Source of the DNA: an uncultured bacterium
GTDB lineage: Bacteria > Electryoneota > AABM5-125-24 > Hatepunaeales > Hatepunaeaceae
Assembly (NCBI GenBank): GCA_964627035.1
Contig: CAZVKN010000002.1
Location: 11,206 to 75,205, forward strand
Reading direction: 5' to 3'
DNA length: 64,000 nucleotides
Part shown: positions 1,860-59,724 of the stretch, in pieces
Layout of the letters: every line of letters begins with the position of its first letter
Position numbering within the stretch: position 1 is the stretch's first letter
Made by a program: the position numbers and the translations under genes
Notes under the pieces: model-generated
What the model was told of the DNA's origin: nothing
What the model saw: the letters and a program-made list of their open reading frames with translations, nothing else
Database searches by the model: none

Positions 1860-2707
1860 TGACAGGTAATATCAGAAACATTATAATTGCTGCGATAGCA
1901 TTAATCATTCTCCTGATGGTCACTTTCACCGTTAACGAGACGCATCAGGCGGTAGTGGTGCAATTAGGCAAACCGGTTAGAACGATCACAAACAGCGGGT
2001 TGCATTTCAAACTGCCGTTCCCGATTCAGACGGTTGTTCAGTTTGAGAAACGTATCCTCGATTACGACTCCGCACCTACCGAAATCCTGACTAAGGACAA
2101 GAAGAACCTTGTGTTGGACAATTACGCCAAATGGCGCATCATTGATCCTCTCAAGCTGCTAGTATCAGTGCAGGACGAAAATGGTGCTCAAGCAAGGCTT
2201 GATGACATTATCTATTCCGAGCTGCGTGAAGCGCTTGGATTGCACGATCTTGAAGAGATCGTCACTACCCGCCGCGCTGAGCTGATGGCGATGGTAACGC
2301 AATCGTCAGACTCAAGTGCCCGTGATTACGGCATTGAAGTGATTGATGTACGAATCAAGCGCGCTGACTTGCCTGAAGAGAATGAGCGTTCAGTCTATGA
2401 ACGAATGAGAGCTGAGCGTAGGAGAATTGCCAATAAATATCGCTCTGAGGGTGAAGAAGAATCGCTGAAAATCCGCGCATCGACAGACAGCCTGAAAGTT
2501 GTGTTGATGGCGGATGCTTACAAAGAATCTCGCATCGCTCGCGGTATGGCTGAGGCAAAAGCAATTGACATCTATGCCAAGGCTTTCGGTCGGGATCCGG
2601 GGTTCTATGAGTTTTATCGGACACTTGAATCATATAAGAAGATCATAGACTCAAATACCGTCATACTGCTCCCGCCGGATACGGAGCTGTTGAAGTATTT
2701 GAAGTAG
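1856..2707 (+). CDS. hflC: HflC, SPFH/band-7 protein
   Basis: TM plus LGKPVRTITNSGLHFKLPFPIQTV. Paired with hflK. Confidence 0.85.
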   Translation: MMTGNIRNIIIAAIALIILLMVTFTVNETHQAVVVQLGKPVRTITNSGLHFKLPFPIQTVVQFEKRILDYDSAPTEILTKDKKNLVLDNYAKWRIIDPLKLLVSVQDENGAQARLDDIIYSELREALGLHDLEEIVTTRRAELMAMVTQSSDSSARDYGIEVIDVRIKRADLPEENERSVYERMRAERRRIANKYRSEGEEESLKIRASTDSLKVVLMADAYKESRIARGMAEAKAIDIYAKAFGRDPGFYEFYRTLESYKKIIDSNTVILLPPDTELLKYLK

Positions 2708-2762
2708 GTTTTACTCACGCAAAGGCGCAAAGACGCAAAGCTTTTCTTTTTGTCTTTGTGCC

Positions 2763-5723
2763 TTGGTGGTTGAGTATAGACCTGTCACCGGTTTACTCAA
2801 TCACCAAATCTCTCAATCACCGAATCACATAATCACATTGCATCTCCAATCACTAAATATCAACGGCTTTGGTTGTCTTCGGACTTCAGTAAGTTTTGAC
2901 AGTGATAAGTTAAATCTGATCATCGCTGATAACGAGCAGGGCAAATCCACGCTTGTAGCCGCTCTCCTTGCCGCATTCTATGGAATCGTGGAGGATGCAC
3001 GCGTAAAGTTTGATAAACGACCTAACAAGCAGAATTTCACACCGTGGGAATCTTCCGATCAATTTGGAGTTGTGTTAGAGTTCACCCAAAACAATATTCC
3101 GTTTACTCTTGCAAGAAACTTCAGTAACGGCTCTGTTAAGTTAATTGATGAGGAAACCGGTCGCGACACATCCGATCAATTCTTTCTGAAAAGAAGTAAA
3201 TATAATCTCGGTGAAAAGATGCTCGGACTTTCATTCGCCGATTTTGTCAGAAGCTTTTATCTACAGCAAGCGGATATCCACAAATTCCACGACCAAGGGG
3301 ATCTGACCTCCCATATCCAGCGAATCGCCACCTCAAGTGCTGACCAGACCACTTCCGAAACAGCCATTGAAAATCTTCGGACAGCCTTAAGAAATTATCC
3401 ATACTCAGGAAGCAAAGGGTTGATGGTAGAAACTGCCATTAAACGGTATAATGACAGAAAAAAAGAACTTCAGGGGGAGATAGCAGCGCTGAACCAACAG
3501 AAATTGGATAGTGAACCGCTGTTGAACCGACTGCGCGACATTGATAGAGAATATGCAGAACTCACCAGAGATCAGGAAGCTAACCGATTGATGGGTGATT
3601 GGGCTGAGGAGAGAGAACTCACAGATCTTATCAACGAGCAGGAATCGCTCGATGTACAGTGCAGCGAGATGAGGCATGAGATTGATGAGCTGGTTCAATA
3701 CGCAGAATTTCCGGCATCGCGATTTGAGCAGTTGACAACTTCAGTCGGTAGTATAAAGCAACTGAGCCGTGATGTAGATGATCTGAATGAAAAGCTTCGC
3801 ACGGAGGTTTCGGAACCGCTTGATGAATTGAAAAAGTCTGCTGAACAGGATGGATTTCAGAGTGAAATATCTGGTGAAGAGTTGAAGGAGTTTGAGGATA
3901 TTTATTCTAAGCTGACCGATAGGAATGAAAGATTAACAAACTACTGGAATGAATACAATGACCTATTGGGAAAACAGGTTTCACTAGGCTATAAGGCTGA
4001 TGAATTTGAATCTCTTGAGACACTGTTCCGTGCTTTTAACGATGATGATCTTGCGTTAATAACTGACTATACGAACTCATCGGGATCGCTGAGTGCAAAA
4101 CTTGATGATTTAACCGGTAGATACAACCGATTGGAACGTGAACAGCAGCGAAACGACCGACGGGATAAGAAAGTCACTTCAATCGCACTAATCTCAATGT
4201 TCTTTGCGGTGCTTTCAATTTCTGTCGGTATATTCTTTGTCATTTTATCTGAATTCAACATGATCGGATATTCTCTCATCGGAATCGGAGTTGTGTTGTC
4301 GCTAATCGGCTTGGTTTCAAAGAGAATTATGGGAGGATTAGCAGACAGCGAGCATGACAATTTTCAAACTCGATATGACGACTGCCGAATACAAAAGTAT
4401 AATGCTGAACGAGAATTGGAAGAACTTACGGATCGGATGAATAAATTATGTCAACAATCAGGTCTTGATGAGTTGCAGGAGTTATTGGACTACTATGGAG
4501 AATTTGAAAGGTTATCAAAGCTAAGATCACCGTTACAGAATACAGAATTCAGGTTACAGGATGCAGATCGGTCATTTCAAGAGATTGCTTTTGAAACTCA
4601 CCGATATTATGAAACTGCAGAACTGGAAATTCCTGAATCTGATGAGCTGGTTCAGAGGACTAAGGAACTCTTAGACAATTTCCGTTCCGCATCCTCGCGC
4701 AACGCTCAGATTGACACCTTCCTCAAATCTCACAGTGAGATACAGGAGGTTCTTGAATCCAAGATAAAAGCATTGGAAACTCAGGAAAATATCTGTTCAG
4801 AAATACTGACCGAAGCAGGGATTAGTGACAGTAATGATTGGTCAGTGGCGGTCAATGAGTTTAGTGATCGAATGGAAAAGCATTATCGTTATCATAGAGT
4901 AATAGAAAATTTTAACCAACTCAGCACTCAGCTACTTACATCGGATGAATTGAACAAGAAAACAGAGCAATTGAAATTAATCGAGCAAGCCCTTCCTGCT
5001 GATCAGTCTCCCGACCATATTGAGCATGATAAGGAACATTACCGGAATCTAAATAGCGAAGCGGCAAATCGTAAAGAACAGCTTTCGGAAAAAAAATCGG
5101 ACATTCACCGCAAGATTGCAGCAACCTTCGAGCGAATTCAGTCTGAGTTGCCTCATCTCAGCGACGAGTTAAACCAGATGACCGAGTCCATTGAGAAAGC
5201 TGAGCGGTTCATGCGTGAAGTGCAGACTGCAATTGATGTGATGGATAAAGTATCTAAGAATGTATATCGGTCATGGGCACTGTCGCTGAGTGAATCTACC
5301 AAACCGCTGCTCAAAGCACTGAATCCAAAGTACAGCAGCATAGTGTTCAATGAAGATCTTTCATTTGTGGTGCATGACTCCCAAACTGATCGTGATATAC
5401 CCTCAGACAAAATTGATCAGGTTCTTTCGGGAGGTGCACACGACGAGATTTTTCTTGCGGCACGGCTCGGTGTGGCATCCTACCTGACTTGTGATTCCAA
5501 AGATACTCTGCCCATTGTGCTGGATGAACCGTTTTCGTCTGTGGATGATGACAAGTTTCTATCCGGGATGGAGTTTCTGCTTGACACGCTATCCCGCAAA
5601 CACCAGTTGCTGCTGCTTTCGTGCCATGAACAGAGGCATAGGTATCTTGAGCGGAAGCTGCCAGACCTTTATGCTGATAGGATTAATCTGATTCATTTAA
5701 ATCGCACGGAAGAGGTGACCTGA
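2763..5723 (+). CDS. SbcC/Rad50-like ABC ATPase with a central two-helix transmembrane hairpin (YhaN-like architecture). Likely true start is TTG 2838.
   Basis: N-terminal Walker A LIIADNEQGKSTL. Long coiled coils. The middle segment VTSIALISMFFAVLSISVGIFFVILSEFNMIGYSLIGIGVVLSLIGLV is about 2 TM helices where SbcC has its zinc hook. C-terminal Walker B/D-loop LLDEPFSSVDDDKF and H-loop LLLSCHEQRH. Confidence 0.75.
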   Translation: MVVEYRPVTGLLNHQISQSPNHIITLHLQSLNINGFGCLRTSVSFDSDKLNLIIADNEQGKSTLVAALLAAFYGIVEDARVKFDKRPNKQNFTPWESSDQFGVVLEFTQNNIPFTLARNFSNGSVKLIDEETGRDTSDQFFLKRSKYNLGEKMLGLSFADFVRSFYLQQADIHKFHDQGDLTSHIQRIATSSADQTTSETAIENLRTALRNYPYSGSKGLMVETAIKRYNDRKKELQGEIAALNQQKLDSEPLLNRLRDIDREYAELTRDQEANRLMGDWAEERELTDLINEQESLDVQCSEMRHEIDELVQYAEFPASRFEQLTTSVGSIKQLSRDVDDLNEKLRTEVSEPLDELKKSAEQDGFQSEISGEELKEFEDIYSKLTDRNERLTNYWNEYNDLLGKQVSLGYKADEFESLETLFRAFNDDDLALITDYTNSSGSLSAKLDDLTGRYNRLEREQQRNDRRDKKVTSIALISMFFAVLSISVGIFFVILSEFNMIGYSLIGIGVVLSLIGLVSKRIMGGLADSEHDNFQTRYDDCRIQKYNAERELEELTDRMNKLCQQSGLDELQELLDYYGEFERLSKLRSPLQNTEFRLQDADRSFQEIAFETHRYYETAELEIPESDELVQRTKELLDNFRSASSRNAQIDTFLKSHSEIQEVLESKIKALETQENICSEILTEAGISDSNDWSVAVNEFSDRMEKHYRYHRVIENFNQLSTQLLTSDELNKKTEQLKLIEQALPADQSPDHIEHDKEHYRNLNSEAANRKEQLSEKKSDIHRKIAATFERIQSELPHLSDELNQMTESIEKAERFMREVQTAIDVMDKVSKNVYRSWALSLSESTKPLLKALNPKYSSIVFNEDLSFVVHDSQTDRDIPSDKIDQVLSGGAHDEIFLAARLGVASYLTCDSKDTLPIVLDEPFSSVDDDKFLSGMEFLLDTLSRKHQLLLLSCHEQRHRYLERKLPDLYADRINLIHLNRTEEVT

Positions 5724-7749: not shown

Positions 7750-9650
7750 AACGTGCGGTTTATTCTCTGCCGGTATTGATTATCATTGTATCTTTTGCGT
7801 GTGAAGGCTATGGGGAAGAATCTTCTTCGGATCAATCCGGAATCATGTCGGCGGAATACAGTCAGGGACTCAATTATGAACGGTGGCAGGGACTATTGGA
7901 AATGACAAAGCGATTTGATGAAAATAAAAGCTTTTATCTCAATGAGCAGTTGACGGTGTGGCTGCATGATATACCAGGTTACCATCCACAGTGGAAAGTG
8001 GATCAAAAGTTGGATTATGAGCTGTCGCATAGAGTGACTTCAGGACTGAGCTGGCTGGTAAGCGGCTCGCTGGATCGGTTTCTCGACAGACGAACGGACA
8101 GGATTGGGAATGACATACGAATGATGCCGATGATTCCACTTGAAAACGGATATAGCGAAAATCTACCAACACTGCTCGTATCATCCGGAAACAGCCTCAT
8201 CGAAGGGTTTCTCGGCGTTGGTTTTGAATACTCATTTCAGCGACCGTTAAATGCTAAACTGAATTTCGGACCTCTCCTTGAAACCAAGGATAATATGAAG
8301 CAGGAAGGTTTCCGCATGTCTGCTGAGGTCAGTGGCACTGATGAAATCAGTGATTGGAAAACTTCCGGCTGGAGAGACCATCTTCCAAACGGGAGCGATT
8401 ACGGACTGATGGCGTCTTTCAACGGTAATTATATGTTCTCCGAACAGGCATCAGACAGGTTTTCCGTTGATTACTCACTCATAGACCGTCAACAGCAGTT
8501 TGCAGTCGGCGTGCCGACTGACCACAAGGACGAATCAATCAAGTTGTCCAATCATCTGAAGAGTGGTATAGCTACAAATCTGCCTGTTACGTGGAAGTCT
8601 GTGATGACAAGGCAGCGGATTGAGCATCTTGATCTGTCCGGTAACTTCAACGGTCTCACATACATCTGGAATAATGATGTTGAGATGGATTGGAACGCCG
8701 GCACAACACTGCTCGGCAGATTAAGCGGCGGCATTGATATTCGACAGCAACAATTTACGAGAAGACTTTATCAAGGTGAACAGATTAACCCGAATTCGAC
8801 AATATCGTCGCTGAATAGAGGAAAACGGATCTATTTTGGCTTTTCAACGTCATATCTCACATCAGTTTCAGATTCACTCACAATTTCATCACAAGCTGCC
8901 CGATACAGATTCGACACACCCGATGAAACCGATAAAAACGACCGCGATGAGCTTCGATACATATCGTCGGTTCGTTATTCTAAAATGATACTGCCCAATT
9001 TTGTATGCAGTGTCAATCTTGAAGTTGACTTAAACCACATTGTTTATATCTTCAGACCACGCAGCATTGAGAATCGCTGGACGAGACTGTTCTCGCTGTC
9101 ATCAGAGCTGCCGTGGCAGGGTGAGTTGCTTAACAATTCAGCGCGTTTCAAGGTTGTCAGCAATTACAGCGACTACGACTACTCACCCGCTACCGAGAGC
9201 CAGAGCAGGGTGTACCGATCATTCAGTGCGGAAGACAGCCTGAGTATTAATCTCAGTAAGGTGTTGTCACTTGAGATTGATGTTGCTTTGATTCTGGATG
9301 ATCATGGGCGGTTCAGATGGGATGAATGGGTTCAGGATCTCTCAGAGGACGGCATCAGCACATCAACCTCGATTCAATCTCTCTGGAAGATTGATCAATA
9401 CAGTGCCGGCCTCGGGTGGTTATGGCATAAGCGGCAAACGACTATCCATCTGCCGTCGGATCAGACACAACCGGGTGAATCGGTGCTCTCCTCAGGTCCG
9501 AAGTTCAGCTTTGTCTATCCACACTCTGAGGATGAGGAGATTACCGGATTGCAGGTGAGATTGGAGGGTTCTATCGTGTGGGTGAGTGACAGATTGCGCG
9601 GTGACTACAAATTGCCCGATTTTCGACTCTCCGCAGCATACACGTTTTGA
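7746..9650 (+). CDS. Secreted/outer-membrane protein, probable beta-barrel, hypothetical
   Basis: Signal peptide MKRAVYSLPVLIIIVSFA. C-terminal ...SAAYTF aromatic terminus typical of OM beta-barrels. GTG start overlapping the upstream stop. Confidence 0.5.
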   Translation: MKRAVYSLPVLIIIVSFACEGYGEESSSDQSGIMSAEYSQGLNYERWQGLLEMTKRFDENKSFYLNEQLTVWLHDIPGYHPQWKVDQKLDYELSHRVTSGLSWLVSGSLDRFLDRRTDRIGNDIRMMPMIPLENGYSENLPTLLVSSGNSLIEGFLGVGFEYSFQRPLNAKLNFGPLLETKDNMKQEGFRMSAEVSGTDEISDWKTSGWRDHLPNGSDYGLMASFNGNYMFSEQASDRFSVDYSLIDRQQQFAVGVPTDHKDESIKLSNHLKSGIATNLPVTWKSVMTRQRIEHLDLSGNFNGLTYIWNNDVEMDWNAGTTLLGRLSGGIDIRQQQFTRRLYQGEQINPNSTISSLNRGKRIYFGFSTSYLTSVSDSLTISSQAARYRFDTPDETDKNDRDELRYISSVRYSKMILPNFVCSVNLEVDLNHIVYIFRPRSIENRWTRLFSLSSELPWQGELLNNSARFKVVSNYSDYDYSPATESQSRVYRSFSAEDSLSINLSKVLSLEIDVALILDDHGRFRWDEWVQDLSEDGISTSTSIQSLWKIDQYSAGLGWLWHKRQTTIHLPSDQTQPGESVLSSGPKFSFVYPHSEDEEITGLQVRLEGSIVWVSDRLRGDYKLPDFRLSAAYTF

Positions 9651-9651
9651 C

Positions 9652-10944
9652 ATGATTCTGCGACTCTTTACTGCGGTGTGTGTGATTTTGCTATGTACCG
9701 GTCACAGCTTATTTTGTCAGACAGAGAGCAGCGAAGTCGTGATTTATGCCGTGGAAGTGACCGGAAACCGTGCCACATCAACCGATTTCATCCTGCGGGA
9801 GATGACACTGAAACCGGGGATGAGCGCCAATGCTGAAACCATAGAGTCTGACAGGTTGAGGCTTGAATCGCTGGGTCTGTTCAACCGCGTGGATATGAAG
9901 ACAGTGTCAGATCAGGGGCGGGCACTGCTGATCGTCACGGTTACGGAACCTTGGTATATCTACCTGTTTCCGATTGTCCGCTGGGATCCATATAATCCTG
10001 ACCGCAGACTGTTGGGTGGAGGCTTGTATCATCGTAACTTCCGAGGTTACGGCGAGCAGGTTGGACTGTTCGGATGGAGCGGATATGAGACAGGTCTGTT
10101 CCTGACCCATGATGATCCCTGGTTCCGCTTTGGAGGCAAGTACGGACTGGACGGGAGTTTGTATTACTTAGACAGAGAGTTAACTGCCGAGTCCGGAACG
10201 ATTCACAGGCAAAAAATCCAGTACATGGAAGCCACTGTCCGGAGACGAATTGACTATACTGCGCGCGTGGAGCTTAGCCTGGCATGGGAGGAAAGAACCT
10301 CCGATCTCGATTCTTACACTTTCAGCTCAAACAATAAAGATCAACTGATTGTCGGTAAGCTGTATCTGCGTAACGACAAGCGTGATTATCGCTACTATCC
10401 ATCTGCCGGGTGTCTTCTTCAAGCTACTCTGGAAGGAAACTATCTTATCGGCGAGTCACATAACTTTATCCGTGAGCAGTTGGAGTATAGACGCTATAGA
10501 GCATTTGGCTCGGTTATCCTTGCCGGAAGATTGATGGCTGCATTCTCACACGGTGAAACTCCTTACTATCGGCAGATACTAATATCAAATCAGTATATTA
10601 GATCCGGTTACGATTTTGACGATTACGGTGAGATTGCTGTGACTGCGAATCTTGAACTTCGCTTTCCACTGGTAAAACTCAGATATTTCAGCTTTGATCA
10701 AATTCCGATAGCAGGAAAGTATCTTCACAATCTTAAATTCAGCGTTGAAGGTCTTCTGTTTGCAGATAAAGGATTTGGTCAGCATAAGGATGGAGTAAAA
10801 AGGAATCACGACCTTTGGGCTTACGGCTGCGGTTTACAATTCCAACTTCCTTATGTTATGATCGCACATATAATCTTCGGCTGGAAACCGGATGACGATA
10901 TCTCAAACCCGGCATTTATGCTTAGAAACGGCGTTACGTTTTGA
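9652..10944 (+). CDS. Omp85/BamA-family outer membrane protein (one POTRA domain plus barrel)
   Basis: Signal peptide MILRLFTAVCVILLC. POTRA-like VVIYAVEVTGNRATSTDFILREMTLKPG...LGLFNRVDM. C-terminal ...RNGVTF. The track ORF start 9586 was replaced by ATG 9652. Confidence 0.6.
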   Translation: MILRLFTAVCVILLCTGHSLFCQTESSEVVIYAVEVTGNRATSTDFILREMTLKPGMSANAETIESDRLRLESLGLFNRVDMKTVSDQGRALLIVTVTEPWYIYLFPIVRWDPYNPDRRLLGGGLYHRNFRGYGEQVGLFGWSGYETGLFLTHDDPWFRFGGKYGLDGSLYYLDRELTAESGTIHRQKIQYMEATVRRRIDYTARVELSLAWEERTSDLDSYTFSSNNKDQLIVGKLYLRNDKRDYRYYPSAGCLLQATLEGNYLIGESHNFIREQLEYRRYRAFGSVILAGRLMAAFSHGETPYYRQILISNQYIRSGYDFDDYGEIAVTANLELRFPLVKLRYFSFDQIPIAGKYLHNLKFSVEGLLFADKGFGQHKDGVKRNHDLWAYGCGLQFQLPYVMIAHIIFGWKPDDDISNPAFMLRNGVTF

Positions 10945-15556: not shown

Positions 15557-15940
15557 TCAGATCAGCTTCGCCACCAGTTCCAGCAGCTCATTCTGGTCAA
15601 TAGGCTTGGCGAGGTAGCCGTCGGGAGGCGGGACCTGCTTGCGGGATGATATGAATGTTTTAAAATCCGCTGAAACACCGGTGATGATCACCACCGGGAT
15701 AGACTTCAAGTCCTCATCCTCGCGAACTGTGCGATAGAATTTGACACCGGACATCTCCGGCATCGTGATATCAAGTGTAATAAGATCAGGCTTGGTTTCA
15801 CGCACTTTAACCAGCCCCTCGTCACCGTTCTCGGCGATAATCGTGTTGTAACCGTTGTCTTCCAATAAACTCGAAAAATAGGTCTGGGTATCCGGCTCGT
15901 CGTCAATTATTAATATGGTTTGCTTTTCAGCCATTTGCAA
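15557..15940 (-). CDS. Single-domain response regulator (CheY-like receiver)
   Basis: LIIDDEPD, phospho-acceptor LDITMPEMSG, IITG, and K in LAKP. The C-terminal PPPDGYLAKP motif is shared with the receiver fused to the HdrD-like protein. Confidence 0.85.
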   Translation of the reverse strand: MQMAEKQTILIIDDEPDTQTYFSSLLEDNGYNTIIAENGDEGLVKVRETKPDLITLDITMPEMSGVKFYRTVREDEDLKSIPVVIITGVSADFKTFISSRKQVPPPDGYLAKPIDQNELLELVAKLI

Positions 15941-15980
15941 TTCCTCTAATATTCTATTTGGTATGCTTTTCTATAAGAAT

Positions 15981-16012
15981 GCCTGAGAGTAGCTGCAGTG
16001 CTACCCTCAGGC
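15981..16012. terminator. 12-bp stem hairpin (GCCTGAGAGTAGC-TGCAG-GCTACCCTCAGGC) downstream of the minus-strand T9SS gene
   Basis: Near-perfect palindrome. Weak T tract on the minus strand. Confidence 0.3.
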
Positions 16013-16070
16013 AGGTAAAATACATATTTATGTCCGAACTTGCAACAGTCAAACGGATAAACGATTAGAC

Positions 16071-17351
16071 CTACTTTATCAGAATGCCCTTGATCACATC
16101 CGTCTTACTACCCGAATTCAGCCGTATGATGTACATACCGGAGTTCAGCGCGCGAGTGTCCAGCCTGATGCTGTGACTCCCCGCAGACATCCGCCCACCA
16201 GTAGCTTCCATCACCAAGCTGCCGTTGATGTCGAACAGTGACAGATTGACATCGCTTGCACGATCCAGCCTGAATGAAACGGTTGACATCGGATTGAATG
16301 GATTCGGGTAGAGCGACACAATGCCAAATTCGGATGGAGTATTGTCATCCTCAGCCACATTGAGCAGATCCCTCATTCTGACCTGTACATCCAACTCCAT
16401 CTCACCGTTGAATGTGAACTCCGCCGCTTCAACAGCTTGATAACCGTCAGCAGTTACCGTTAACATGAACTGTTCATGTGGAAAACGGTATAGCTCAAAC
16501 ATACCGTCTTCGTCTGAGACGACTTCGATATTGGCGTCAACTACGGTTATTGTTGCGTTCTCAATCGGAGCATTGGTGTCGTCGTCCACCACCTGACCGT
16601 AAACGCTGCCGCCGTATCCGGCGAGATCTGCGAGGACATCCTCAAGAAACTCTGCACGGTCAAAGTCATGCTCGTTGTTCAACCCAAGGAAACAGATGCT
16701 CTGACTATACGCTCTGTATGCTCCTCCACCGTCGAAGAATACGCTGCGGACATAGTCTTCATTGCAGACGAAAACCGGATGTGATCCATCAAGTCCGCGG
16801 ATTCTGTCCGGCACGCCTCCGACCATCGCCATGTCCTCGTTTGTGTAGTATCCAAAGGCGCGTTCACCCAATTGACCCTCCTCATCGGCGTCAACACGGG
16901 TGATTTCGTTGTCTTCACCTACTTCTACAAATTCGATGTTGAAATAGTCGAACAAATCTGTTTCATGGTGTTGACCGCACCAGTCGTTGCCCTCGATGTA
17001 CAGACCGCGGTTCAATTCAACAAATTCAATTAAGGTCTCTTGGCTCTCCCGGTCAATCTGACCGGCTTCTATTCCGCCACCTCAATCGGGGCAGGAGAAA
17101 CCAAGCAGCACCATGATGACATCGTATTGACTCAAGTCGTCCGGGAGCGCTTCGTCGTGATCGTACTCGATCTCAAGTTGATCGAGCGTCTGCATCACGG
17201 CTGAAGACGAATTCAGCCTTTCTCCCAGGACAGGATCGTCAATCGGTAGTGGGTTATCGTTCACCCAAACGAACAGATCATAAGCGGATACACTCCCTGC
17301 CATGAGCAGAACGCAGAGCAGCAATCCCAAAATATATCCTGTTTTTTTCAT
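16071..17351 (-). CDS. T9SS C-terminal-domain secreted protein (carboxypeptidase-regulatory-like middle) interrupted by one in-frame TGA (17082-17084). Possible Sec/recoding site or a pseudogene.
   Basis: Track ORFs 17082..17351 (signal peptide MKKTGYILGLLLCVLLMAGSVSA) and 16071..17015 (TTG start, no signal peptide, Por_Secre_tail C-terminus) share one frame and are separated only by TGA. Read-through gives ...GFSCPD-U-GGGIEAGQIDRE... Confidence 0.5.
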
Positions 17352-17366
17352 TATACCTCCTGTAAG

Positions 17367-18821
17367 TTAATTGGAAACAGCCATCGTTTGGACATGTTTC
17401 CTTGGAATTCTCACAATAAATCGTGTACCTTTATCTACCTCTGACTCAAGATCTATTGAACCCTTATGAGCCTTTGCAATCTTGTGTGCAATAAACAGTC
17501 CCAAACCTGTACCTTCAGTACCTTTCGACGAAAAGAACAGGCTGAATGCCTTCTCCCGTGTTTCCTGTTCCATTCCGATGCCGTCATCCTGAACCTCAAA
17601 CCGGACATGATCCACTTCACCGACTGCCCTTAACACCACCCGATGAGCCTCCTGTTTGTTGTCAATCCGGCAGGCGTCAAGCGAATTCTCCATCAGATTC
17701 ACTAACAGCGAGCGGATCGCTTTGTCGTCAGCTTCAAACTCACCAATATCCATGTTGATCTCTTTTGTAAGCTCAACTCCAAGTTCATCAGCTTTGTCTT
17801 TCGTTAATGTATATACATCGTTGGCGATGCTGTCACCTGACAGCAGCTCCCAATCCGGTTCTCGGTCTTTGGCATAGTAGAGAATATCGAGCACCATGCT
17901 GCGGACGCGGGTCACGTTGCGTAAGACAATCTCCCACCCCTGCTCGACACGGGCAGGATTATTCTTTTTCAGACCGTTATTGACGAGATAGATACCACCA
18001 TCCAATCCGTTGAGGATGCCCTTGATTCCGTGTGAGATAGTGCTTATCAACAGACCGATAGACGTTAACTGATCCTGCAATTCGCGAATCTGTGTGATGT
18101 CGGTGCTGATCTCAATGACCTGTTCAATCTCACCCTCAGCATTGCGCAACGGAGATGTGTAAACCAGCACATTCATCATCTTGCCATCAATTGAGGAGAC
18201 TACCTCTTCGTGGACATGCATCTCTCCATCCTGAAAAGTCTGACGAACGATGCATGGAACACATTCCTCTGTGCGATGTTTGTATGCCTCATAACATTTA
18301 GCACCATAGTTTGGTCCAAATGCTTCACGGTGGAGCCGATTGGCGTGGACGATCCGCATATCACGATCCTGAATCGAAATAAAACAAGGAACCTCCTCAA
18401 ATAATAGCCGGTATTTCTCCTGACTCTCTTTGTTCTGCTTCTGGAGCTGTTTTATCTCAGTGATGTCGGTTGACATCTCCATGACCGCCGTAATCTCACC
18501 GGCTTTATTGTAAATCGGAGTGGTGTAAACAATGACTGACACTTCACTGCCGTCAAGACAACGGACATGCTCTTCGCTTGAATGCCGTTGACCGTCCCTG
18601 AAAGTCCTCTCTACCGGACAGACTTCACACTTTTCAGGACGATTCTTGTACACCTGATAGCAGTATCGCCCCTCATAAGATCCGAAATCCTCAACAAACC
18701 ACTTGTTTGCACTGATAACTTTCAGGTTGCGATCCTGCACGGTCAAGTAGCAAGGCATTGACTCGAAATATTGTTGGTACGGCAGTTCCATGTCAGTCTC
18801 CCAAAAAGACGATAGGAGCAT
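17367..18821 (-). CDS. Sensor histidine kinase with two duplicated Cys-rich PAS-like domains, HisKA and HATPase_c
   Basis: Two repeats with C-x10-C-x2-C (CYQVYKNRPEKCEVCP; CYEAYKHRTEECVPC). H-box ISTISHGIKGIL. G-boxes GTGLGL. Confidence 0.85.
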   Translation of the reverse strand: MLLSSFWETDMELPYQQYFESMPCYLTVQDRNLKVISANKWFVEDFGSYEGRYCYQVYKNRPEKCEVCPVERTFRDGQRHSSEEHVRCLDGSEVSVIVYTTPIYNKAGEITAVMEMSTDITEIKQLQKQNKESQEKYRLLFEEVPCFISIQDRDMRIVHANRLHREAFGPNYGAKCYEAYKHRTEECVPCIVRQTFQDGEMHVHEEVVSSIDGKMMNVLVYTSPLRNAEGEIEQVIEISTDITQIRELQDQLTSIGLLISTISHGIKGILNGLDGGIYLVNNGLKKNNPARVEQGWEIVLRNVTRVRSMVLDILYYAKDREPDWELLSGDSIANDVYTLTKDKADELGVELTKEINMDIGEFEADDKAIRSLLVNLMENSLDACRIDNKQEAHRVVLRAVGEVDHVRFEVQDDGIGMEQETREKAFSLFFSSKGTEGTGLGLFIAHKIAKAHKGSIDLESEVDKGTRFIVRIPRKHVQTMAVSN

Positions 18822-18845
18822 TTAGCTCCTATCATCTAAGATTAA

Positions 18846-20594
18846 TTATGCCAACTCGAGAATTTTCCGAGCGTTGAGCAGCAGAGTATCTTCATTGACA
18901 GGTTTGTTCAGATATCCCTCCGGTGGTGGTATGGATGTGCGATCATAGATCAATTTACGCAATTCGGGTCTGCCTGTTATGATACAGATTTTGATACTTT
19001 CAGTCTCAGGATTCTTCTTTAACGCTTCATAAACCTTCGTCCCGTCCGTTCCGGGCATTGACAGGTCAAGCGTGATCATATCAGGTATTTCCTTTGACGC
19101 TATTTCAATTGCTGAATCACCGTCCGCTGCTTCAAGCACCGTAGCACCGTTGTCTTCCATTACTGCGGTGAAGAAGGTGCGGATGTCCGGTTCGTCATCA
19201 ACAACCAATATTCTGAATCCGGCGAGTGCTTCTGCAACTGCCTCTTCTTTAATTTCCGGAACGGCAACAACAACCGGTTTCTCAGGAATGACAATTGCAT
19301 TTGCAACCAGATTGACCAATTGAGTAACTTCCATGCCCAGCTCGTAATGTTTTATGCAGTCTGCTAAACCATCCACGCAGTTGTGACATGATGTCACGAC
19401 AATTTCAGCACCTGTCGCCTTCAACTGGTCAGCTTTGACCTTTGCCGATTTCAGACGACGCGGCGTATATTCCGACATTGACATCGCACCACCGCCACCT
19501 GTGCAGCAGTAGTTCTCCGCTCGATTCGGGTACATCTCTGTGAAGTTCTCACAGACAAGGTTTAGTAGTTCACGAGGCTCTTCAAACAAGCCGCAGCTTC
19601 GTGCGTTGTTGCATGAATCGTGAAAGGTGACCGGAATTTTGTTCTTAGATTTATCAACTTTAATCCTGCCTTCTTTAATGTAACGGAGCATCGTATCTAC
19701 GGAACTTTCCATTACAAAATTCACATCAACCTGACCCCAGTTCTGTCCTTCGCAGCGTGTCGAACGGTAACCGTGACCACACTCGGAGATGACCAGCGTC
19801 TTACCTTTCAACTCTTCAACCTTGTCATACAGCCTCTTCGCAACCGCACCACCGAGGTCGTCATCACCGGAGAACAGCCCGAAGTTGGTCATGTCCCAGC
19901 CCTCACTCGGCATCGTCCAGTTCTCGCCTGCAATATGGAAAATCTTTGCTGCATCTGCAATTGTGCGAGGGTCATATTTTGCCTCGCGGGGATTGATTGA
20001 ATATACTATGTCGGCGTTCATCTTATCAATAGGTATTACCGCAGTCTTATCCTCCAAATCCTCCTGCAGCTCTTCGGACATCCAATCAAGTGTATCAAGA
20101 TAATCCTCTTTTAACACACCCATCTGATTGCCGATCTCCCATTGATCCTTACTCACAACCGCCACACCCTCCGGCATGACTCCAACAGACACCAAAAGTC
20201 CGCGAGTCATCCGGTTGTAAGTTGCAAAGTCAACACCCATCGGGCAGTTGATTGAGCAACGTCGGCAGTTGGTGCACTTACCGAAAACCGTATCTTTAAT
20301 TTCTTCAAGTTCTTCATCGGTATAGACACTCTTTGCTTTGACCCACCATGGGATCACCTGCCCGGTCCAGTCGTGATGGCGCTTGAACAGCTTCCGCAGA
20401 ATGTCTCCTTTATATGCCGGGGCGTATGTCGGATCCCCCGGATTTGCCTGAACGTAATGACAAGACTCGGTACACATCCCACAGTGAACACAAGCCAGCA
20501 ATGAACCTGCAATCTGGCGGTTCAGCTTTTTACTCATCCGTTCCAGTACTTTCTCAGCTTTATATGATCTGGCTTTAGCCATTGTTGTCTCCAT
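18846..20594 (-). CDS. HdrD/DsrK/GlpC-like Fe-S oxidoreductase (2x[4Fe-4S] plus 2 CCG domains) fused to a C-terminal response-regulator receiver domain
   Basis: CVHCGMCTESCHY and CTNCRRCSINCPMG ferredoxin motifs. CCG motifs CGHGYRSTRCEG, CCTGGGGAMSM and TSCHNCVDGLADC. C-terminal REC: ILVVDDEPD, ITLDLSMPGTDG, IITG, NKP. Confidence 0.8.
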   Translation of the reverse strand: METTMAKARSYKAEKVLERMSKKLNRQIAGSLLACVHCGMCTESCHYVQANPGDPTYAPAYKGDILRKLFKRHHDWTGQVIPWWVKAKSVYTDEELEEIKDTVFGKCTNCRRCSINCPMGVDFATYNRMTRGLLVSVGVMPEGVAVVSKDQWEIGNQMGVLKEDYLDTLDWMSEELQEDLEDKTAVIPIDKMNADIVYSINPREAKYDPRTIADAAKIFHIAGENWTMPSEGWDMTNFGLFSGDDDLGGAVAKRLYDKVEELKGKTLVISECGHGYRSTRCEGQNWGQVDVNFVMESSVDTMLRYIKEGRIKVDKSKNKIPVTFHDSCNNARSCGLFEEPRELLNLVCENFTEMYPNRAENYCCTGGGGAMSMSEYTPRRLKSAKVKADQLKATGAEIVVTSCHNCVDGLADCIKHYELGMEVTQLVNLVANAIVIPEKPVVVAVPEIKEEAVAEALAGFRILVVDDEPDIRTFFTAVMEDNGATVLEAADGDSAIEIASKEIPDMITLDLSMPGTDGTKVYEALKKNPETESIKICIITGRPELRKLIYDRTSIPPPEGYLNKPVNEDTLLLNARKILELA

Positions 20595-38751: not shown

Positions 38752-38835
38752 TCCGCTGTCAACCCGTTGTGGTTGACAGCACAACTTTTGTAATATCAAT
38801 ATGATAGCTGTCAGGTGCGGCGACCTGACAGCGGG
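38752..38835. repeat. Double-hairpin repeat element, copy 2
   Basis: CCGCTGTCAACCCGTTGTGGTTGACAGC ... GCTGTCAGGTGCGGCGACCTGACAGCGG. Confidence 0.85.
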
Positions 38836-38861
38836 TTCTTCATATTCAGTAGTTTATCGTC

Positions 38862-39896
38862 TCATTTGGTGTACATTATCCTCTGAACCGCCGTCTCGCC
38901 TCCCCCATTTAGTTGCAGAAAATATGATCCTGCCGGGAAGTTTCCGGCACTGAAATTCATCTCATCAGAACCGTTACCGACTCCTGACTCGATTGTTGAC
39001 ATCAATCTGCCTGTTACATCAAGTAGTGAGATTGAGTACGGCTCACCTTTTTGTACCGAGAAGCTGAAGCGTGTCTGACTGTTGAACGGATTCGGGTAAG
39101 CCGGATTTAGCACAACTGCTGTCGGTATGTATCCCGATGGTGTCAATGTTGTCCGGACACCGAGAGGATCAGCGATCACAACCCGAAATGTGAAGTTGAA
39201 CCCGATGTCCTCTCCGAGGTCACCAAAATTCATATCAATCATCCGCGACCACTCTTCATCCTCGCCGTTCCAGAATATGCTGCGGTTGGTCGGATGCTCC
39301 TGCCCGTCATCAGAAATAATTGCCAGACTGTCTCTCTCATCATCGAGGATTGCGTTTACACCGACATGAAAATCAACCTCGTCATTAAATGAGATCTCCA
39401 GATCGGTAAAATCAATGACATTCCATACCGGGACTATGGTCACCGAATCATCCTGACCTGCTATCTCATCGCTAAACAGAATATCATCAAAAGCGATATT
39501 GATCGAGTCTATCAACTCGCCGGGGTAGCCCTCTTCCCTGTTCTGTTCTCCACTCTGCCAAACATGTACACTCATACCCGGCGTTCCCTGCTCACCGAAC
39601 AGGTAAAAGATGGGAATATGCGCCTCTACAATTGTAAATGGAGCGAACGGAGGTGTATAGCGGACGTTGAAATGGGAGTCCCCCAATTCATCAATGTCAG
39701 GAATTGTCCAAAAGAATGAGGTAATCATCGGATCACCATAGTACAGCGTTGTATCACCTTCATCTATTCCTGTGATTCTGTCGCTTTTCTCGCCTATGTA
39801 ATCTGGATTTTCGACCCGGCGGGCACTCCGCTCTGCCGAAAGTGCGGAAGTTATAAAAAGAGCCAATGATACAAGTATGATAAAAGTTGTTCGCAT
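38862..39896 (-). CDS. T9SS C-terminal-domain (Por_Secre_tail) secreted protein, hypothetical
   Basis: Signal peptide. C-terminus YPNPFNSQTRFSFSV...SYFLQLNGGGETAVQRIMYTK. Confidence 0.7.
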   Translation of the reverse strand: MRTTFIILVSLALFITSALSAERSARRVENPDYIGEKSDRITGIDEGDTTLYYGDPMITSFFWTIPDIDELGDSHFNVRYTPPFAPFTIVEAHIPIFYLFGEQGTPGMSVHVWQSGEQNREEGYPGELIDSINIAFDDILFSDEIAGQDDSVTIVPVWNVIDFTDLEISFNDEVDFHVGVNAILDDERDSLAIISDDGQEHPTNRSIFWNGEDEEWSRMIDMNFGDLGEDIGFNFTFRVVIADPLGVRTTLTPSGYIPTAVVLNPAYPNPFNSQTRFSFSVQKGEPYSISLLDVTGRLMSTIESGVGNGSDEMNFSAGNFPAGSYFLQLNGGGETAVQRIMYTK

Positions 39897-40095: not shown

Positions 40096-43000
40096 CTAGC
40101 GCAGCAACACTACCTTTCGTGTCAAATGCCTGCCGGATGCGCTGACTCTGATGAGATAGACACCGCTTGCAATGTCAGCAGCCTGAATTGACAGTGTATG
40201 CCTGCCTGCGCTGTAGCGTCCCTCAGCAATCGTGCGAACGGAGCGTCCGGTAAGGTCGTACAGTGCTGCTGTCACAAAGCCACTTTCAGACAAGTTTATC
40301 GGTATGATGGTCACCGCATTGAACGGATTCGGATACGGCTGACCGATTTCAAATGTCTGTGGAATCACGGCTTCATCAGAGACAGACTGCGGATCACCAA
40401 TCGCAAGAATGATCGGTATTTCAACCGTTCCACCCCGTCCATCTGTATTAAAGACAAGTGTTGAATTTAGACTGATGTCATTCTCCAAACCTATACCACT
40501 GAACGACAGCTCAAGACTACTTTCTCCATCCGGCTCAAGGCTGCCTTCTACTGCTGAGACAATGCTGATCCAATCGGTCGGGCTCTCGATGTTACACACG
40601 CGGATCAAGCGTTCATCACCGTTCTGTACCATGCCGATCAGGTTGATTTGCATCGGGCTGTAGCTGTCAGTTACACTGAGCCCGTCACCCAATATCTCGT
40701 TTTCAGCAGCGGCAACCGAGGACACATATTCCACCTCGCCGCTGGTCGGATCCGCGCGGTATATGTCGAGATCCCCCGCCTGCAATCCCGCTGAGATAAT
40801 CAGATCGTAATCACTGTCAGGATCGTCGTACCATGCCAATCCACGTATGGTAATATCCCCGCTGTCAATGACATTGAGCATGTTTCCTTCAGCATCAATC
40901 AGCAAGGGTAACTCATCGTCCTTGCCAACCCAGATATTGCCGTCATTATCAATCGCAAGACATTTGTTCGGGTTAAAGGGACCGTCAATTCGATCAGCAA
41001 TCTCACCTTCGAGGGTCAGTTTGTAGATGGTCGCATTTGAGCTTCCGTATAAATACTCACCGTCCCAGGCGAGGTCATACAGTCCTACACCTGAAATCTC
41101 ATCAGGGAGAACTCTGCTTTCAACTATGTTCCCGTTCCGTGCGATCTTGTAAATATAGTTCGGATCACCGTTGTTGTTGCCTCCGGCAACATAGAAATGA
41201 TCTTCCACAAGCACCACACCCTTCAACCGTCGGTCATCGCTGTTAACGGCATGATCCGCAATGGTTTCAAACAGATCTAAAAAGTCAAGCTCTGCACTCC
41301 AGCGCAGCGGTCCGTTACCGCTGTTGCTGAATGTGAACTCGCGACCGGTAGAATCGTCAACCTCCATCTGCAGGCTCATCCAGGCTGAATCCGAAACGAA
41401 TTGGCTGAATCGCAGTGCAAAGTTAACCTCTGCGGTATCATCCACCGGGACATTGATGACCTGACTCATCGTCAGCCAACCGTCAATTTGGGCGGTCAGA
41501 GTCCGTTCACCAGCCGGAGATGATTCGATCATGAAATTCCCGTCGGCATCGCTGAAGGTGATTATCCGAAAACCGTTGATTGACAGATGCACACCCTCTA
41601 CCGCCTCACCGGAAGCGAAATCTGTGACCTGTCCTCTGATCGCTCCGACATCACCTTCGATTATAAAACTGCCAAAATCGGGAATGGAGTTCCGCTCGTA
41701 AATCCCCCAGAAAAGCTCAATCGGCTCATCGAGCGGACCATCCAGTTCCAGCTCCACCAGCCCGTCAGCGTCACTCTCCCCGACATAGTATATCGCATCA
41801 TCCTCGCTGCGGACGCAAAGCCTTGCACCTTCGACAGGCTCCTCTTCCGCTGAGATCGTTGCTCTGATAACATCCTGTCCGACGGCGATTTCACCGTCAA
41901 AGTCCACCACAAGCTGCTCAGGCTGTTGGATGCGATACTCCAGCGCAGGATCACCGAGCCAGATGTAAGCGCGGGTGTTCATCCGACCGATGACGGGATA
42001 AGCACCGTTCCTATGCACATTATCAAAAAAAGGCACCATCTGAGCCATAGTCCAAACAGCATTATACCCCAGATCGAAATTCCCTTCATCGAACCATCCA
42101 CGAAACAGTGTTGAATCAAAAAAATGATTCCCGCTGGTGTATGTTGATATCACACTTCCATGAGCAGAGACAGAAGCCCCATTCCAATGTTTCTGAAATT
42201 TCTCAATCAGACAGTCGGTGAAATATGTCGCGATGTTTGCGTTCAGACAGGCTGATGAGACGTAGATGAACGGACGATTACGGTTAGCCATTCTGTTAAC
42301 AAGAGCACCGTTGATATTCTGACCCTGTCGCCAACCGACTCCTCCTGCTGCATTACCGTGCCCTCGATAGTTAAAGAACCCAATGCCCGCTTCGTTGATG
42401 TTCTCAATGATGTCATCGTTATCTACGTCATCAATACCGTAAAGCTCAGTCCACTCAGGACGAGGGAAAAGATATTCGTAGGTCGCAACTCTACGCTTGC
42501 ATTCAATATAGTGCCGCTCACCATCTTCAAGCTCTCGATGTCCCACCAGAATTGCTCGTTCCAGCCATTCGCTGTCATCCTGATCTTCAAATGACCACAT
42601 AAGATAGTCCATCAGCTTGTCAACCTGAACCTCCAACTCTCCAAGCTCATCTCGCTCATAGGTCAATCTTCCAACTGCCAGCTCAAGCAGATGATCGTCG
42701 TACCGGTCACCATCGCGAAACTCGACTTGCTCATCGAGACAGCAGTACCAGTTGTCACTGTGTGAGGAGACAGGTACGGGATCTTGCCAGCCGGGATCTT
42801 CCGGATCCCAAAAGAACATCGGGACATGATGATCGTCTTCGTCGCCGTCACCGATGATGAACAGGTACTCAAGCCCATCCTCAAAGCGGTCGCGAATTTC
42901 ATCGCGAATGTCTTCCGGTTCGATTTCGTCATCAACCAGCCACACATCAGCCCGTAAGCCCGTGTTATGATGGAAGTCTATAAGCGGTTGAGCGACTTCC

Positions 43001-43782
43001 TGCGCATCTTCCTGCATGACAAACAGCATCCTCACGGGTTCGATTTCATCGGCATCGAGCTGTCTCGGATCCGGTGGATTGAGCAGTGCGGTTTGATGCA
43101 ACTTGTTCATCCGACTGCTTGGATAGCGTGATCGGACGATGTTTTGGACATTCCCCGGCACAAAGTCAATGCGGACAGTGATGCTGCTCGCAACCTCCAA
43201 CTGCTGATATGCAGGGACATACCGGATCGGTGCTACCGACATTCCGGTGACGTAAACCCCGCCCCACCCCTCGGCTCTGCCTACATAGGAGTTCTCAGAT
43301 GGAGTCGGTTGATTTGACTTATAGGCGTCAAACGATTTCTGAAACGGTGGTGGTGGTGATCCATCATCACGGCGAGGTGTCTGTTTGGGGTATAGATTGA
43401 ACTGTCCTGCATCCACCCAGTTTACGCTGACTATCTCAGCGGTGGCTTGGGTTCCATCAGGTAATCGGATCATCTCACTCAGAAATGGAATTTCCGGCGC
43501 ACCGATAGCTCCGGAACCGTAGAAAGAGGAACCGTTGAACGAAATCCGGTGGAACTTCTCAGCGTCAGCCTGAACAGTCCTGACGAAAAAGCCGCTGATA
43601 TCCCACCTGACCAACAGATGCGACTCATCCTGCTCAAGCAGTGTTAACTGAGGTGTTGCCGGCTTGGGGTCTCCGTTTAAGGGATGCCATGCAGGTGCAG
43701 CCGTAAGAGTAGTAACTGACAAAACTGCCACCACTACAGCGGTTAAAAACACTCTGTGAATAAATAAACTGTTTTCATTCAT
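40096..43782 (-). CDS. Peptidase C25 (gingipain-like) family protein with a T9SS C-terminal sorting domain
   Basis: Signal peptide from MNENSLF... NYRGHGN (catalytic His motif) and VSSACLNAN (Cys). C-terminal YPNPFNAVTIIPINL...SGVYLIRVSASGRHLTRKVVLLR. Confidence 0.6.
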   Translation of the reverse strand: MNENSLFIHRVFLTAVVVAVLSVTTLTAAPAWHPLNGDPKPATPQLTLLEQDESHLLVRWDISGFFVRTVQADAEKFHRISFNGSSFYGSGAIGAPEIPFLSEMIRLPDGTQATAEIVSVNWVDAGQFNLYPKQTPRRDDGSPPPPFQKSFDAYKSNQPTPSENSYVGRAEGWGGVYVTGMSVAPIRYVPAYQQLEVASSITVRIDFVPGNVQNIVRSRYPSSRMNKLHQTALLNPPDPRQLDADEIEPVRMLFVMQEDAQEVAQPLIDFHHNTGLRADVWLVDDEIEPEDIRDEIRDRFEDGLEYLFIIGDGDEDDHHVPMFFWDPEDPGWQDPVPVSSHSDNWYCCLDEQVEFRDGDRYDDHLLELAVGRLTYERDELGELEVQVDKLMDYLMWSFEDQDDSEWLERAILVGHRELEDGERHYIECKRRVATYEYLFPRPEWTELYGIDDVDNDDIIENINEAGIGFFNYRGHGNAAGGVGWRQGQNINGALVNRMANRNRPFIYVSSACLNANIATYFTDCLIEKFQKHWNGASVSAHGSVISTYTSGNHFFDSTLFRGWFDEGNFDLGYNAVWTMAQMVPFFDNVHRNGAYPVIGRMNTRAYIWLGDPALEYRIQQPEQLVVDFDGEIAVGQDVIRATISAEEEPVEGARLCVRSEDDAIYYVGESDADGLVELELDGPLDEPIELFWGIYERNSIPDFGSFIIEGDVGAIRGQVTDFASGEAVEGVHLSINGFRIITFSDADGNFMIESSPAGERTLTAQIDGWLTMSQVINVPVDDTAEVNFALRFSQFVSDSAWMSLQMEVDDSTGREFTFSNSGNGPLRWSAELDFLDLFETIADHAVNSDDRRLKGVVLVEDHFYVAGGNNNGDPNYIYKIARNGNIVESRVLPDEISGVGLYDLAWDGEYLYGSSNATIYKLTLEGEIADRIDGPFNPNKCLAIDNDGNIWVGKDDELPLLIDAEGNMLNVIDSGDITIRGLAWYDDPDSDYDLIISAGLQAGDLDIYRADPTSGEVEYVSSVAAAENEILGDGLSVTDSYSPMQINLIGMVQNGDERLIRVCNIESPTDWISIVSAVEGSLEPDGESSLELSFSGIGLENDISLNSTLVFNTDGRGGTVEIPIILAIGDPQSVSDEAVIPQTFEIGQPYPNPFNAVTIIPINLSESGFVTAALYDLTGRSVRTIAEGRYSAGRHTLSIQAADIASGVYLIRVSASGRHLTRKVVLLR

Positions 43783-43839
43783 GATTAAACCTTTACCTTC
43801 GTCACACTGCTGCAACATGGGTAGATGGACTGAAAATTT

Positions 43840-52355: not shown

Positions 52356-52790
52356 TCAGATCAACTCACGTAGCCAGTCCATATCTATATTCGGGCAGGT
52401 GCGGTTGTCGCCGGACAGCTCATAGTGACCGATCAGCTCTGCATCGGGATACTCTTTCCTCAATCGCCGGATCAGATTGGTCACAGTCTCAAATTGATGC
52501 ATCGTGAACTGCTTTTTTCCAATGAGACAGATGCCGATGCTGCTGCTGTTGTATCCTTTCGCATGTGCACCGATTACTTCCATCGGTCTCCCGATCTGCG
52601 CAGTTCCATCCAACCAGAATTGAGGTTGCTTTAATTTGAACACTTCCTCTGTCGGATATCCGTTCATAATCACATAATGATACCCGATCCGGTCGTACCC
52701 ACACTTGCGATGCCACTCGTCGATCAACGCAACGTTCCCGTAAGGTGAGTCGCTGCAATGAAGTATAATTCGATTAATATTTCTCGTCAT
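52356..52790 (-). CDS. N-acetylmuramoyl-L-alanine amidase (Amidase_2/PGRP, T7-lysozyme-like endolysin)
   Basis: ILHCSDSP...GYHYVI...IGAHAKGYNSSSIGICLIG...CPN zinc-ligand pattern. Start taken at MTRNINR (52790). Confidence 0.75.
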   Translation of the reverse strand: MTRNINRIILHCSDSPYGNVALIDEWHRKCGYDRIGYHYVIMNGYPTEEVFKLKQPQFWLDGTAQIGRPMEVIGAHAKGYNSSSIGICLIGKKQFTMHQFETVTNLIRRLRKEYPDAELIGHYELSGDNRTCPNIDMDWLRELI

Positions 52791-52801
52791 GTCGTTGTCC
52801 T

Positions 52802-53065: not shown

Positions 53066-53154
53066 GTCATTGCGAATCCACGTAGTGGGTGAAGCAATCT
53101 CTTCGTATTATGTAAGAGATTGCTTCGTCAATCCTTTCCTCGCAATGACAGAAG

Positions 53155-53290: not shown

Positions 53291-53293
53291 AAG

Positions 53294-54911: not shown

Positions 54912-54940
54912 TGATATATCTCCTTGAATAGTTGTATTCC

Positions 54941-55769: not shown

Positions 55770-55790
55770 CTGTTTGTCTCCTTTTAAATT

Positions 55791-57165: not shown

Positions 57166-57204
57166 TTATGTCTCCTTGATTTTTTGTTGGTGTAATTATC
57201 CAAT

Positions 57205-59711: not shown

Positions 59712-59724
59712 TATCTACTCCTCC

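Follow-up and report, generated by a model that had tools for sequence, protein, structure and literature searches.

Does the TGA codon at 17084..17082 of a 64,000-nucleotide stretch of DNA from an uncultured bacterium (contig CAZVKN010000002.1; hereinafter, the window) terminate a gene, or does it specify an amino acid in the middle of one? On the minus strand, where this codon and all parts of the gene discussed below are located, the TGA joins, in one frame, an 89-codon open reading frame (ORF) with a signal peptide to a 336-codon ORF with a sorting tail of the type IX secretion system (T9SS), an arrangement that was originally noticed in the sequence alone (...GFSCPD-TGA-GGGIEAGQ...) and on which the sequence and the ORF table agree. 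The 89-residue product of the upstream ORF (17351..17082) begins MKKTGYILGLLLCVLLMAGSVSA-YD and ends ...LLGFSCPD at the TGA, after which the frame reads GGGIEAGQ..., that is, GGGIEAGQIDRESQ..., and stays open for 336 more codons, to the TAG at 16073..16071. Public collections keep the gene as two unnamed ORFs, of 89 and 314 amino acids, the latter called from a TTG start (17015..16071). Judging from the comparative sequence analysis set out below, we consider it very probable that the TGA is a selenocysteine (Sec, or U) codon within a single gene for a 426-residue secreted protein (16071..17351); with this gene, a small family of selenoproteins that seems to be missing from the catalogues would be recognized for the first time.

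One gene or two

The split annotation amounts to a claim that there are two genes here, one for an 89-residue secreted peptide that ends at the TGA and one for an independent protein that starts from the TTG at 17015. Although every public gene caller annotates the locus in this manner, such an arrangement appears highly improbable on several grounds. A protein made from the downstream ORF alone would have a T9SS tail and lack a signal peptide, and that tail, first recognized in the sequence alone, is confirmed by matches to PF18962 (46.2 bits against a cut-off of 27; E=5.6e-12) and TIGR04183 (39 bits against a cut-off of 23; E=5.7e-10). Conservation at the protein level extends over the 23 codons that separate the TGA from the TTG (GGGxxAxxI...LIxYLxxNRG), and the first usable start varies among the homologues, the matches beginning anywhere from query residue 17 to 103. 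Furthermore, the homologue P0021, which has cysteine at the site, is encoded in one continuous ORF, and in an AlphaFold2 model of its domain, built from a 14-row alignment in which the window fragments were included as rows (best model: pTM 0.81, pLDDT 77.7), a single predicted alpha/beta domain takes strands from both sides of the TGA position. The original assertion that both ORFs belong to one gene is thus upheld by the conservation on both sides of the TGA and by the continuous cysteine homologue; the complete predicted gene comprises 426 codons including that for Sec90.

Conservation of the TGA among homologues

Only six proteins were retrieved when the joined N-terminal domain served as the query of a homology search, all of ~310 amino acids and all confined to the part after the TGA. 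In the DNA of each of these six matches, a ~90-residue ORF lies upstream in the same frame, and TGA occupies the homologous codon, with the junction motifs CPN-U-GGG (L001), CNT-U-EDG (L002), SST-U-EDA (L003) and STT-U-QEI (L004). Further homologues, L012-L016, L018, L021 and L022, came from alignment-based scans of genome and metagenome collections; all have TGA in the same column, most commonly with the motif SFYCPG-U-GGGTPASRI, and the named sources of these homologues are Calditrichaeota metagenome-assembled genomes (MAGs), one of which holds two paralogues, and one TA06 MAG. When a single sequence served as the query, the genome-collection scan yielded no match, whereas the alignment-based scan succeeded.

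Because a word-indexed profile search gave fewer matches than a single-sequence search, an exhaustive HMMER search was run against 1.84 billion representative proteins, and it returned only 20 relatives. Seventeen of these start at their own residue 1-4 and were thus called from just past the stop. Two relatives extend further upstream. One of them, P0021 (encoded at L026), contains a genuine TGC cysteine codon at the site, as part of a CxxC motif (LGIWCTG-C-GSTPPG). For the other, P0023 (L025:251-1285), the public call lists tryptophan where the DNA reads TGA; tryptophan was therefore rejected as a gene-caller artefact, of the kind produced by translation in the style of genetic code 4, which could mislead searches for pairs of selenocysteine- and cysteine-containing homologues.

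The comparison with orthologues that was proposed in the original prediction, with a sense codon as the unfavourable outcome, shows at the DNA level TGA in 14 distinct genes, including that of the window, TGC in one distant homologue, and TAA or TAG in none. The 13 further TGA genes (L001-L004, L012-L016, L018, L021, L022 and L025) encode proteins with ~25-66 % identity to the window protein, and in the alignments protein conservation continues through the TGA on both sides. A single TGA in an otherwise intact gene does have the look of a fresh nonsense mutation, and a pseudogene or a sequencing or assembly error was among the options considered from the beginning. These possibilities are now effectively refuted. 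The exact sequence of the window, including the TGA and the hairpin described below, is present in six independent assemblies from different samples (L006-L011), which rules out a sequencing or assembly error, and at the same codon the further genes contain TGA and never another stop down to ~25-30 % identity, without other disruptions of the frame and with strong conservation on both sides.

The cysteine three residues upstream of the TGA, Cys87 (codon TGC, 17091..17093), forms a C-x-x-U motif (C-P-D-U) with Sec90 in the window gene, as was pointed out originally; as a trait of the whole family, this motif does not hold. Of the 12 Calditrichota-type genes, 10 have cysteine at position -3, as does L025, and two have serine instead (SSTU and STTU); in the TA06 protein the cysteine adjoins the selenocysteine (C-U).

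A hairpin with the properties of a bacterial SECIS element

The perfect 7-bp hairpin with a GAU loop that was originally reported 16 nt past the UGA is located at 17065..17049 (CCGGUCA-GAU-UGACCGG; stem 17065..17059 and 17055..17049, loop 17058..17056), within codons A96-G-Q-I-D-R101. The stem lies 16 nt and the 3-nt loop 23 nt from the UGA, and the minimum free energy (MFE) of the hairpin alone is -11.2 kcal/mol; the hairpin is also present in the MFE fold of a 51-nt segment. In the bacterial selenocysteine insertion sequence (bSECIS) model of Zhang and Gladyshev, as quoted in PMC13188914, the consensus element has a loop of 3-9 nt, a stem of 4-16 bp, a G in the first two loop positions, a UGA-to-loop distance of 16-37 nt and an MFE <= -7.5. 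Compared by hand with these published criteria, the window hairpin agrees with every one of them.

Among 12 distinct genes, 94 % of the helix cells are paired, and displacing the 3' strand of the helix by 1-3 columns lowers this to 8-39 %; in the five-sequence set, pairing is 100 %. Both sides change in 5 of the 7 base pairs, none of 500 column shuffles reaches the observed covariation score, and all 12 genes have the same GAU loop. The stems seen are CCGGUCA/UGACCGG, CUGGUCA/UGACCAG, CAGGCUG/CAGCCUG, CGAGCCG/CGGCUCG and CGAGUCG/CGACUCG, along with two further variants that are bulged or mismatched, and the energies of the isolated hairpins range from -7.5 to -11.9 kcal/mol. The encoded peptide varies non-conservatively (QIDR, WISL, RIDS or RIGS) while pairing is retained, and the codon that supplies the loop G with its third base is CAG, UGG or CGG. 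The preservation of pairing in the face of changing residues indicates that, at this position, it is the RNA and not the protein that is under selection.

The more distant members have less uniform structures. The TA06 gene possesses a different hairpin of the same geometry, in which a 10-bp stem carries a GGA loop at 26 nt from the UGA, and L025 has a weaker one (-6.9 kcal/mol). A candidate 'fossil SECIS' in the cysteine homologue (L026, 118-2454), a bulged hairpin of 9 bp whose GGUC loop lies 29 nt past the TGC, was rejected as being no better than shuffled sequence (z = -0.83). An Rfam scan of the window detected no family at the gathering score.

Selenocysteine machinery and the case for read-through

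Genes for selenocysteine synthesis and insertion were sought both in the window and among the relatives. In the Calditrichaeota MAG that contains L016 (VGIO01000071.1), ARAGORN identifies a tRNA-Sec with the anticodon UCA at 2084-2178, and the assignment is corroborated by Rfam (RF01852, 69.3 bits against a gathering score of 47, E = 8.8e-13). Directly upstream of this tRNA gene, the ORF at 627-2063 encodes SelA (PF03841, E=7.9e-143), and 123 nt downstream of it begins a member of the family (2300-4608; ATG at 2300, TGA at 2569). The three genes are arranged head to tail on one strand and could constitute a selenoprotein operon. Thus, at least one genome that carries the family is demonstrably equipped for selenocysteine, and the gene is physically linked in it to selA and selC.

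Selenium-independent decoding of the UGA, either by programmed or leaky read-through (for example, by tRNA-Trp, perhaps stimulated by the hairpin) or through a lineage-specific reassignment of the codon, is a more serious competitor than those discussed above, even if an improbable one. UGA is the leakiest of the bacterial stop codons, one pipeline did render the TGA of P0023 as tryptophan, and the selenocysteine machinery was not found in the 84 kb examined of the window's genome. However, the tryptophan of P0023 is a gene-caller artefact, the homologue with a sense codon at the site has cysteine there, not tryptophan or glycine, the geometry and the loop G of the hairpin agree with the SelB-dependent consensus, and selA and tRNA-Sec adjoin a family member in L016. 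Moreover, 12 of the window's 33 long open frames terminate at TGA, and a scan of the window for other genes split by TGA, with at least 60 codons on each side, revealed no convincing case; TGA being an ordinary stop in these frames and no second gene being so interrupted, a genome-wide reassignment of UGA is excluded.

Selenocysteine, the first of the options listed in the original prediction, accordingly remains the preferred reading of the codon, given the retention of the TGA in homologues, the covarying hairpin, and the presence of selA and tRNA-Sec next to a relative. Several observations weigh against it. The search for selenium genes that was recommended at the outset turned up selA and tRNA-Sec in the relative and nothing at the locus itself: selA, selB, selD and tRNA-Sec were not found in the 64-kb window or in the 10 kb past each of its ends (84 kb in all), and neither SelB nor SelD was seen in any locus of the family examined, so that the selenocysteine competence of the window's own genome is inferred from its relatives. 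The hairpin is a minimal one whose G-A-U loop departs from the commoner G-[G/U] pattern, and of the 3325 TGA triplets in the window, 36 (1.1 %) have a comparable structure behind them, a perfect stem in SECIS geometry with 7 bp or more. At this chance rate, the hairpin by itself is weak evidence; it is the conservation of the TGA together with the hairpin across homologues that places the feature far beyond chance. Finally, the structural model is that of a cysteine homologue with ~26-30 % identity to the window protein, built from a 14-row alignment; four of the five models are poor (pLDDT 53-59), and the C-x-x-C loop falls below 50 pLDDT.

If the UGA is indeed decoded as selenocysteine, SelB with Sec-tRNA(Sec) would bind the 7-bp, GAU-loop hairpin at 17065..17049, and selenocysteine would be inserted at position 90 in place of termination. 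The product would then be exported by virtue of its N-terminal signal peptide and handed to the T9SS via the C-terminal sorting domain, to end up on or outside the cell surface. There, Sec90, accompanied in most members by Cys87 in the C-x-x-U arrangement, would be exposed on a loop after strand 3, near the invariant GLYIEGND elbow of strand 4. We infer the binding of SelB, the incorporation of selenium, the export, the delivery by the T9SS and the chemistry of the site from the features of the gene and its relatives.

Domain architecture and predicted fold

The gene is preceded by a ribosome-binding site, GGAGG (17356..17360), 4 nt 5' of the ATG at 17351, as read from the sequence. Residues 1-23 (MKKTGYILGLLLCVLLMAGSVSA, followed by Y; 17283..17351) form a predicted signal peptide of the Sec export type; it was read from the sequence rather than called by a predictor, and the homologues are alike in this respect, with an equivalent hydrophobic N-terminus upstream of the TGA in every one of them. 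The N-terminal domain (residues 24-248; 16608..17282) spans the TGA at 17082..17084 and holds the invariant GLYIEGND motif. It is followed by a CarboxypepD_reg-like beta-sandwich domain (residues 249-328; 16368..16607; PF13715, E=2.6e-12; PF13620, E=1.1e-11) and by the C-terminal sorting domain of the T9SS, type A (about residues 347-426; 16074..16313; residues 347-422 in the profile matches). The Calditrichota-type members come in two architectures, a short one, as in the window, and a long one of ~780-1070 residues in which the additional domains are mostly unannotated. A signal peptide starts all members of the family, and the complete genes of both architectures end in a T9SS tail; no recognizable T9SS tail is found at the end of the TA06 member.

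The N-domains of the window, long-form, TA06 and cysteine-form proteins had no match in Pfam or NCBIfam, even at E <= 0.1-1, and a sequence search of the PDB with the N-domain gave only chance-level matches. From the P0021 model, the domain that bears the selenocysteine is predicted to have an alpha/beta fold of the class-I glutamine-amidotransferase-like (GATase1-like; GIFT/ThuA-type) kind; no protein with a thioredoxin fold is present among the top structural matches. In this model, the Sec/Cys position maps to the loop directly after strand 3, before a helix, and the invariant GLYIEGND corresponds to strand 4 and the turn that matches, by topology only, the nucleophile elbow of the GATases. 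A class-I glutamine amidotransferase enzyme has a catalytic cysteine at the elbow after strand 4 (G-x-C-x-G, with a His/Glu triad), whereas the elbow reads E-G-N-D here, with no cysteine. From the C/S-x-x-U motif and from what selenoproteins generally do, our best guess is that the site most likely has a surface-exposed, selenol-based redox role or a chalcogen- or metal-binding one.

Cysteines 125 and 220 were considered as resolving partners of the selenocysteine; both are invariant in the short forms and lost in several long forms, so they are not partners across the family. Two distant homologues from WOR-3 (L019:449-679 and L020:3274-3501) keep the GGGLYIEGND strand and contain neither selenocysteine nor cysteine in the preceding loop (…LLGQNSASTSMG…), from which it appears that the scaffold is older than the selenol site.

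Relationship to known selenoproteins and protein families

The presumed decoding mechanism is standard for bacteria, and it is the protein family that appears to be new. As in other bacterial selenoprotein genes with an intragenic bSECIS, of which E. coli fdhF is the prototype, an in-frame UGA is followed by a stem-loop in the coding region with G first in a small loop, the homologues have UGA or cysteine at the site, and selA and selC are present in the genome of a relative. Unlike the known genes of this type, the present one belongs to a family that is unrelated to the catalogued ones, and its hairpin is minimal (7 bp, 3-nt loop), with GAU instead of G[G/U].

In our set, the selenocysteine forms greatly outnumber the cysteine forms, which is the reverse of the pattern usual for selenoproteins. 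This imbalance (14 vs 1) would explain why searches based on Sec/Cys pairs have missed the family, and the near-absence of cysteine homologues exposes a blind spot of these discovery methods.

A catalogue of 119 prokaryotic selenoprotein families published in 2026 (PMC13188914, Table 1) has no entry that describes and no model that matches the window protein; the family is probably, although not certainly, uncatalogued. Exported or outer-membrane selenoproteins are predicted in the same catalogue, namely DsbA/DsbG-like proteins, a thiol:disulfide interchange protein, a TonB-dependent receptor of the FCYXU type (NF049945), an MtrB/PioB-type barrel and an ExtKL cytochrome (PMC13188914). The window protein resembles these in being destined for the outside of the cytoplasm and in its CxxU motif (CxxU or UxxC being frequent among them), but none of them is a T9SS cargo or a GATase1-like/GIFT protein, and their NCBIfam and Pfam models miss the window protein. 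The sole entry from the GATase superfamily (NF004836; PMC13188914) likewise has selenocysteine on a class-I GATase scaffold; there, however, it is part of a GxUxG motif and replaces the classical catalytic cysteine, whereas in our family it lies on the loop after strand 3, the elbow is E-G-N-D, the protein is secreted rather than cytoplasmic, and NCBIfam gives no match. The window protein has the layout of a type-A T9SS cargo, with a signal peptide at one end, the sorting domain at the other, and between them a passenger domain and a CarboxypepD_reg-like spacer, but no cargo of this system is entered in PMC13188914 as a selenoprotein.

The structural comparison set comprised GATase1-like, GIFT and ThuA-type domains of known structure, namely STM3548 (PDB 2gk3), 3rht, the N-terminal domain of IFT52 (5fms), the middle domain of a GH42 protein (3tts) and a ThuA-like protein (1t0b). 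From all of these the window domain differs in that identity is only 10-16 %, no sequence model is shared, and they are not catalogued as selenoproteins. Most domains of this group serve as accessory or binding modules and are not known for redox chemistry, and no C-x-x-C/U loop is known in any of them.

In the titles and abstracts that a literature search brought up, selenocysteine and type IX secretion were mentioned together only in one paper, on hydrothermal-vent isolates, which by title and abstract is off-topic, and the search found no paper linking Calditrichota to selenocysteine. All things considered, we are inclined to believe that this is an uncatalogued selenoprotein family, the first to be delivered to the cell surface by the T9SS, with selenocysteine on a loop of a GATase1-like/GIFT scaffold that was not previously known as catalytic and with many more selenocysteine than cysteine forms, and that, being linked to selA and selC in at least one genome, it is perhaps a principal reason why the selenocysteine trait has been kept in Calditrichota. 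Such a family corrects a systematic annotation error, the gene being public as two unnamed fragments and its TGA being read as tryptophan by one pipeline, and would add a candidate to the bacterial selenoproteome, in Calditrichota. Conceivably of broader interest is the presence of a predicted selenol on a T9SS-exported, surface-destined protein without a thioredoxin fold, which poses the questions of which extracellular chemistry needs selenocysteine and how the site is re-reduced outside the cell.

Genomic neighbourhood and other features of the window

The predicted selenoprotein gene resides in a minus-strand array (15557-20594) with genes for signal transduction. A PAS-domain histidine kinase (17367..18821) is encoded immediately upstream, its stop 15 nt before the ATG of the selenoprotein; a Fer4-CCG-receiver (ferredoxin) fusion (18846-20594) is encoded upstream of the kinase, and a single-domain response regulator (15557-15940) past the selenoprotein gene. 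The same order of kinase, fusion and regulator is found in L001 and is lost in more distant members; redox-sensing control of the selenoprotein gene is possible.

In L002, a TPMT/TehB-type methyltransferase gene (1922-2554) directly follows the selenoprotein gene, and in L001 a methyltransferase gene (9336-10067; weak TehB match) is located 2.4 kb downstream of it. Compounds of selenium and tellurium are among those that TPMT/TehB-type enzymes can methylate; the association with the selenoprotein gene may be real or coincidental.

Three further genes for cargo proteins with T9SS tails are present in the window, at 38862-39896 (minus strand), 40096-43818 (minus strand) and 49296-51428 (plus strand); no component of the core T9SS machinery (PorU, PorV, SprA etc.) was seen in it. 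The second of these genes encodes a peptidase of the C25 (gingipain) family, 1240 residues long, that also has a propeptide and a CarboxypepD_reg domain; it was considered as a candidate for the PorU sortase and rejected, with 34 bits against a cut-off of 420 bits, in favour of a cargo protease.

Long palindromes of three kinds recur in the window: those of the GGACGGACAGGAATGTCCGTCC type at ~24281, ~40048 and ~61797; those of the GTCATTCC...GGAATC type at ~43924, ~51518, ~57246 and ~57370; and those of the GCTGTCAACC...GGTTGACAGC type at ~38745, ~43902 and ~46033. They look like repeats of the REP (repetitive extragenic palindromic) kind or shared terminators. Inside a cluster of these palindromes, a tRNA-Asp is called by ARAGORN at 38762-38838 (plus strand). 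Its anticodon, ATC, is anomalous, and Rfam detects no tRNA there at the gathering score; the call is probably a false positive. Lastly, the region 52356-61693, which consists of a run of ORFs without Pfam matches, with an Amidase_2 gene (52356-52868), a tRNA-Ile (60179-60259) and a weak phage-capsid-like match just below the cut-off (60641-61693), may be a prophage remnant.

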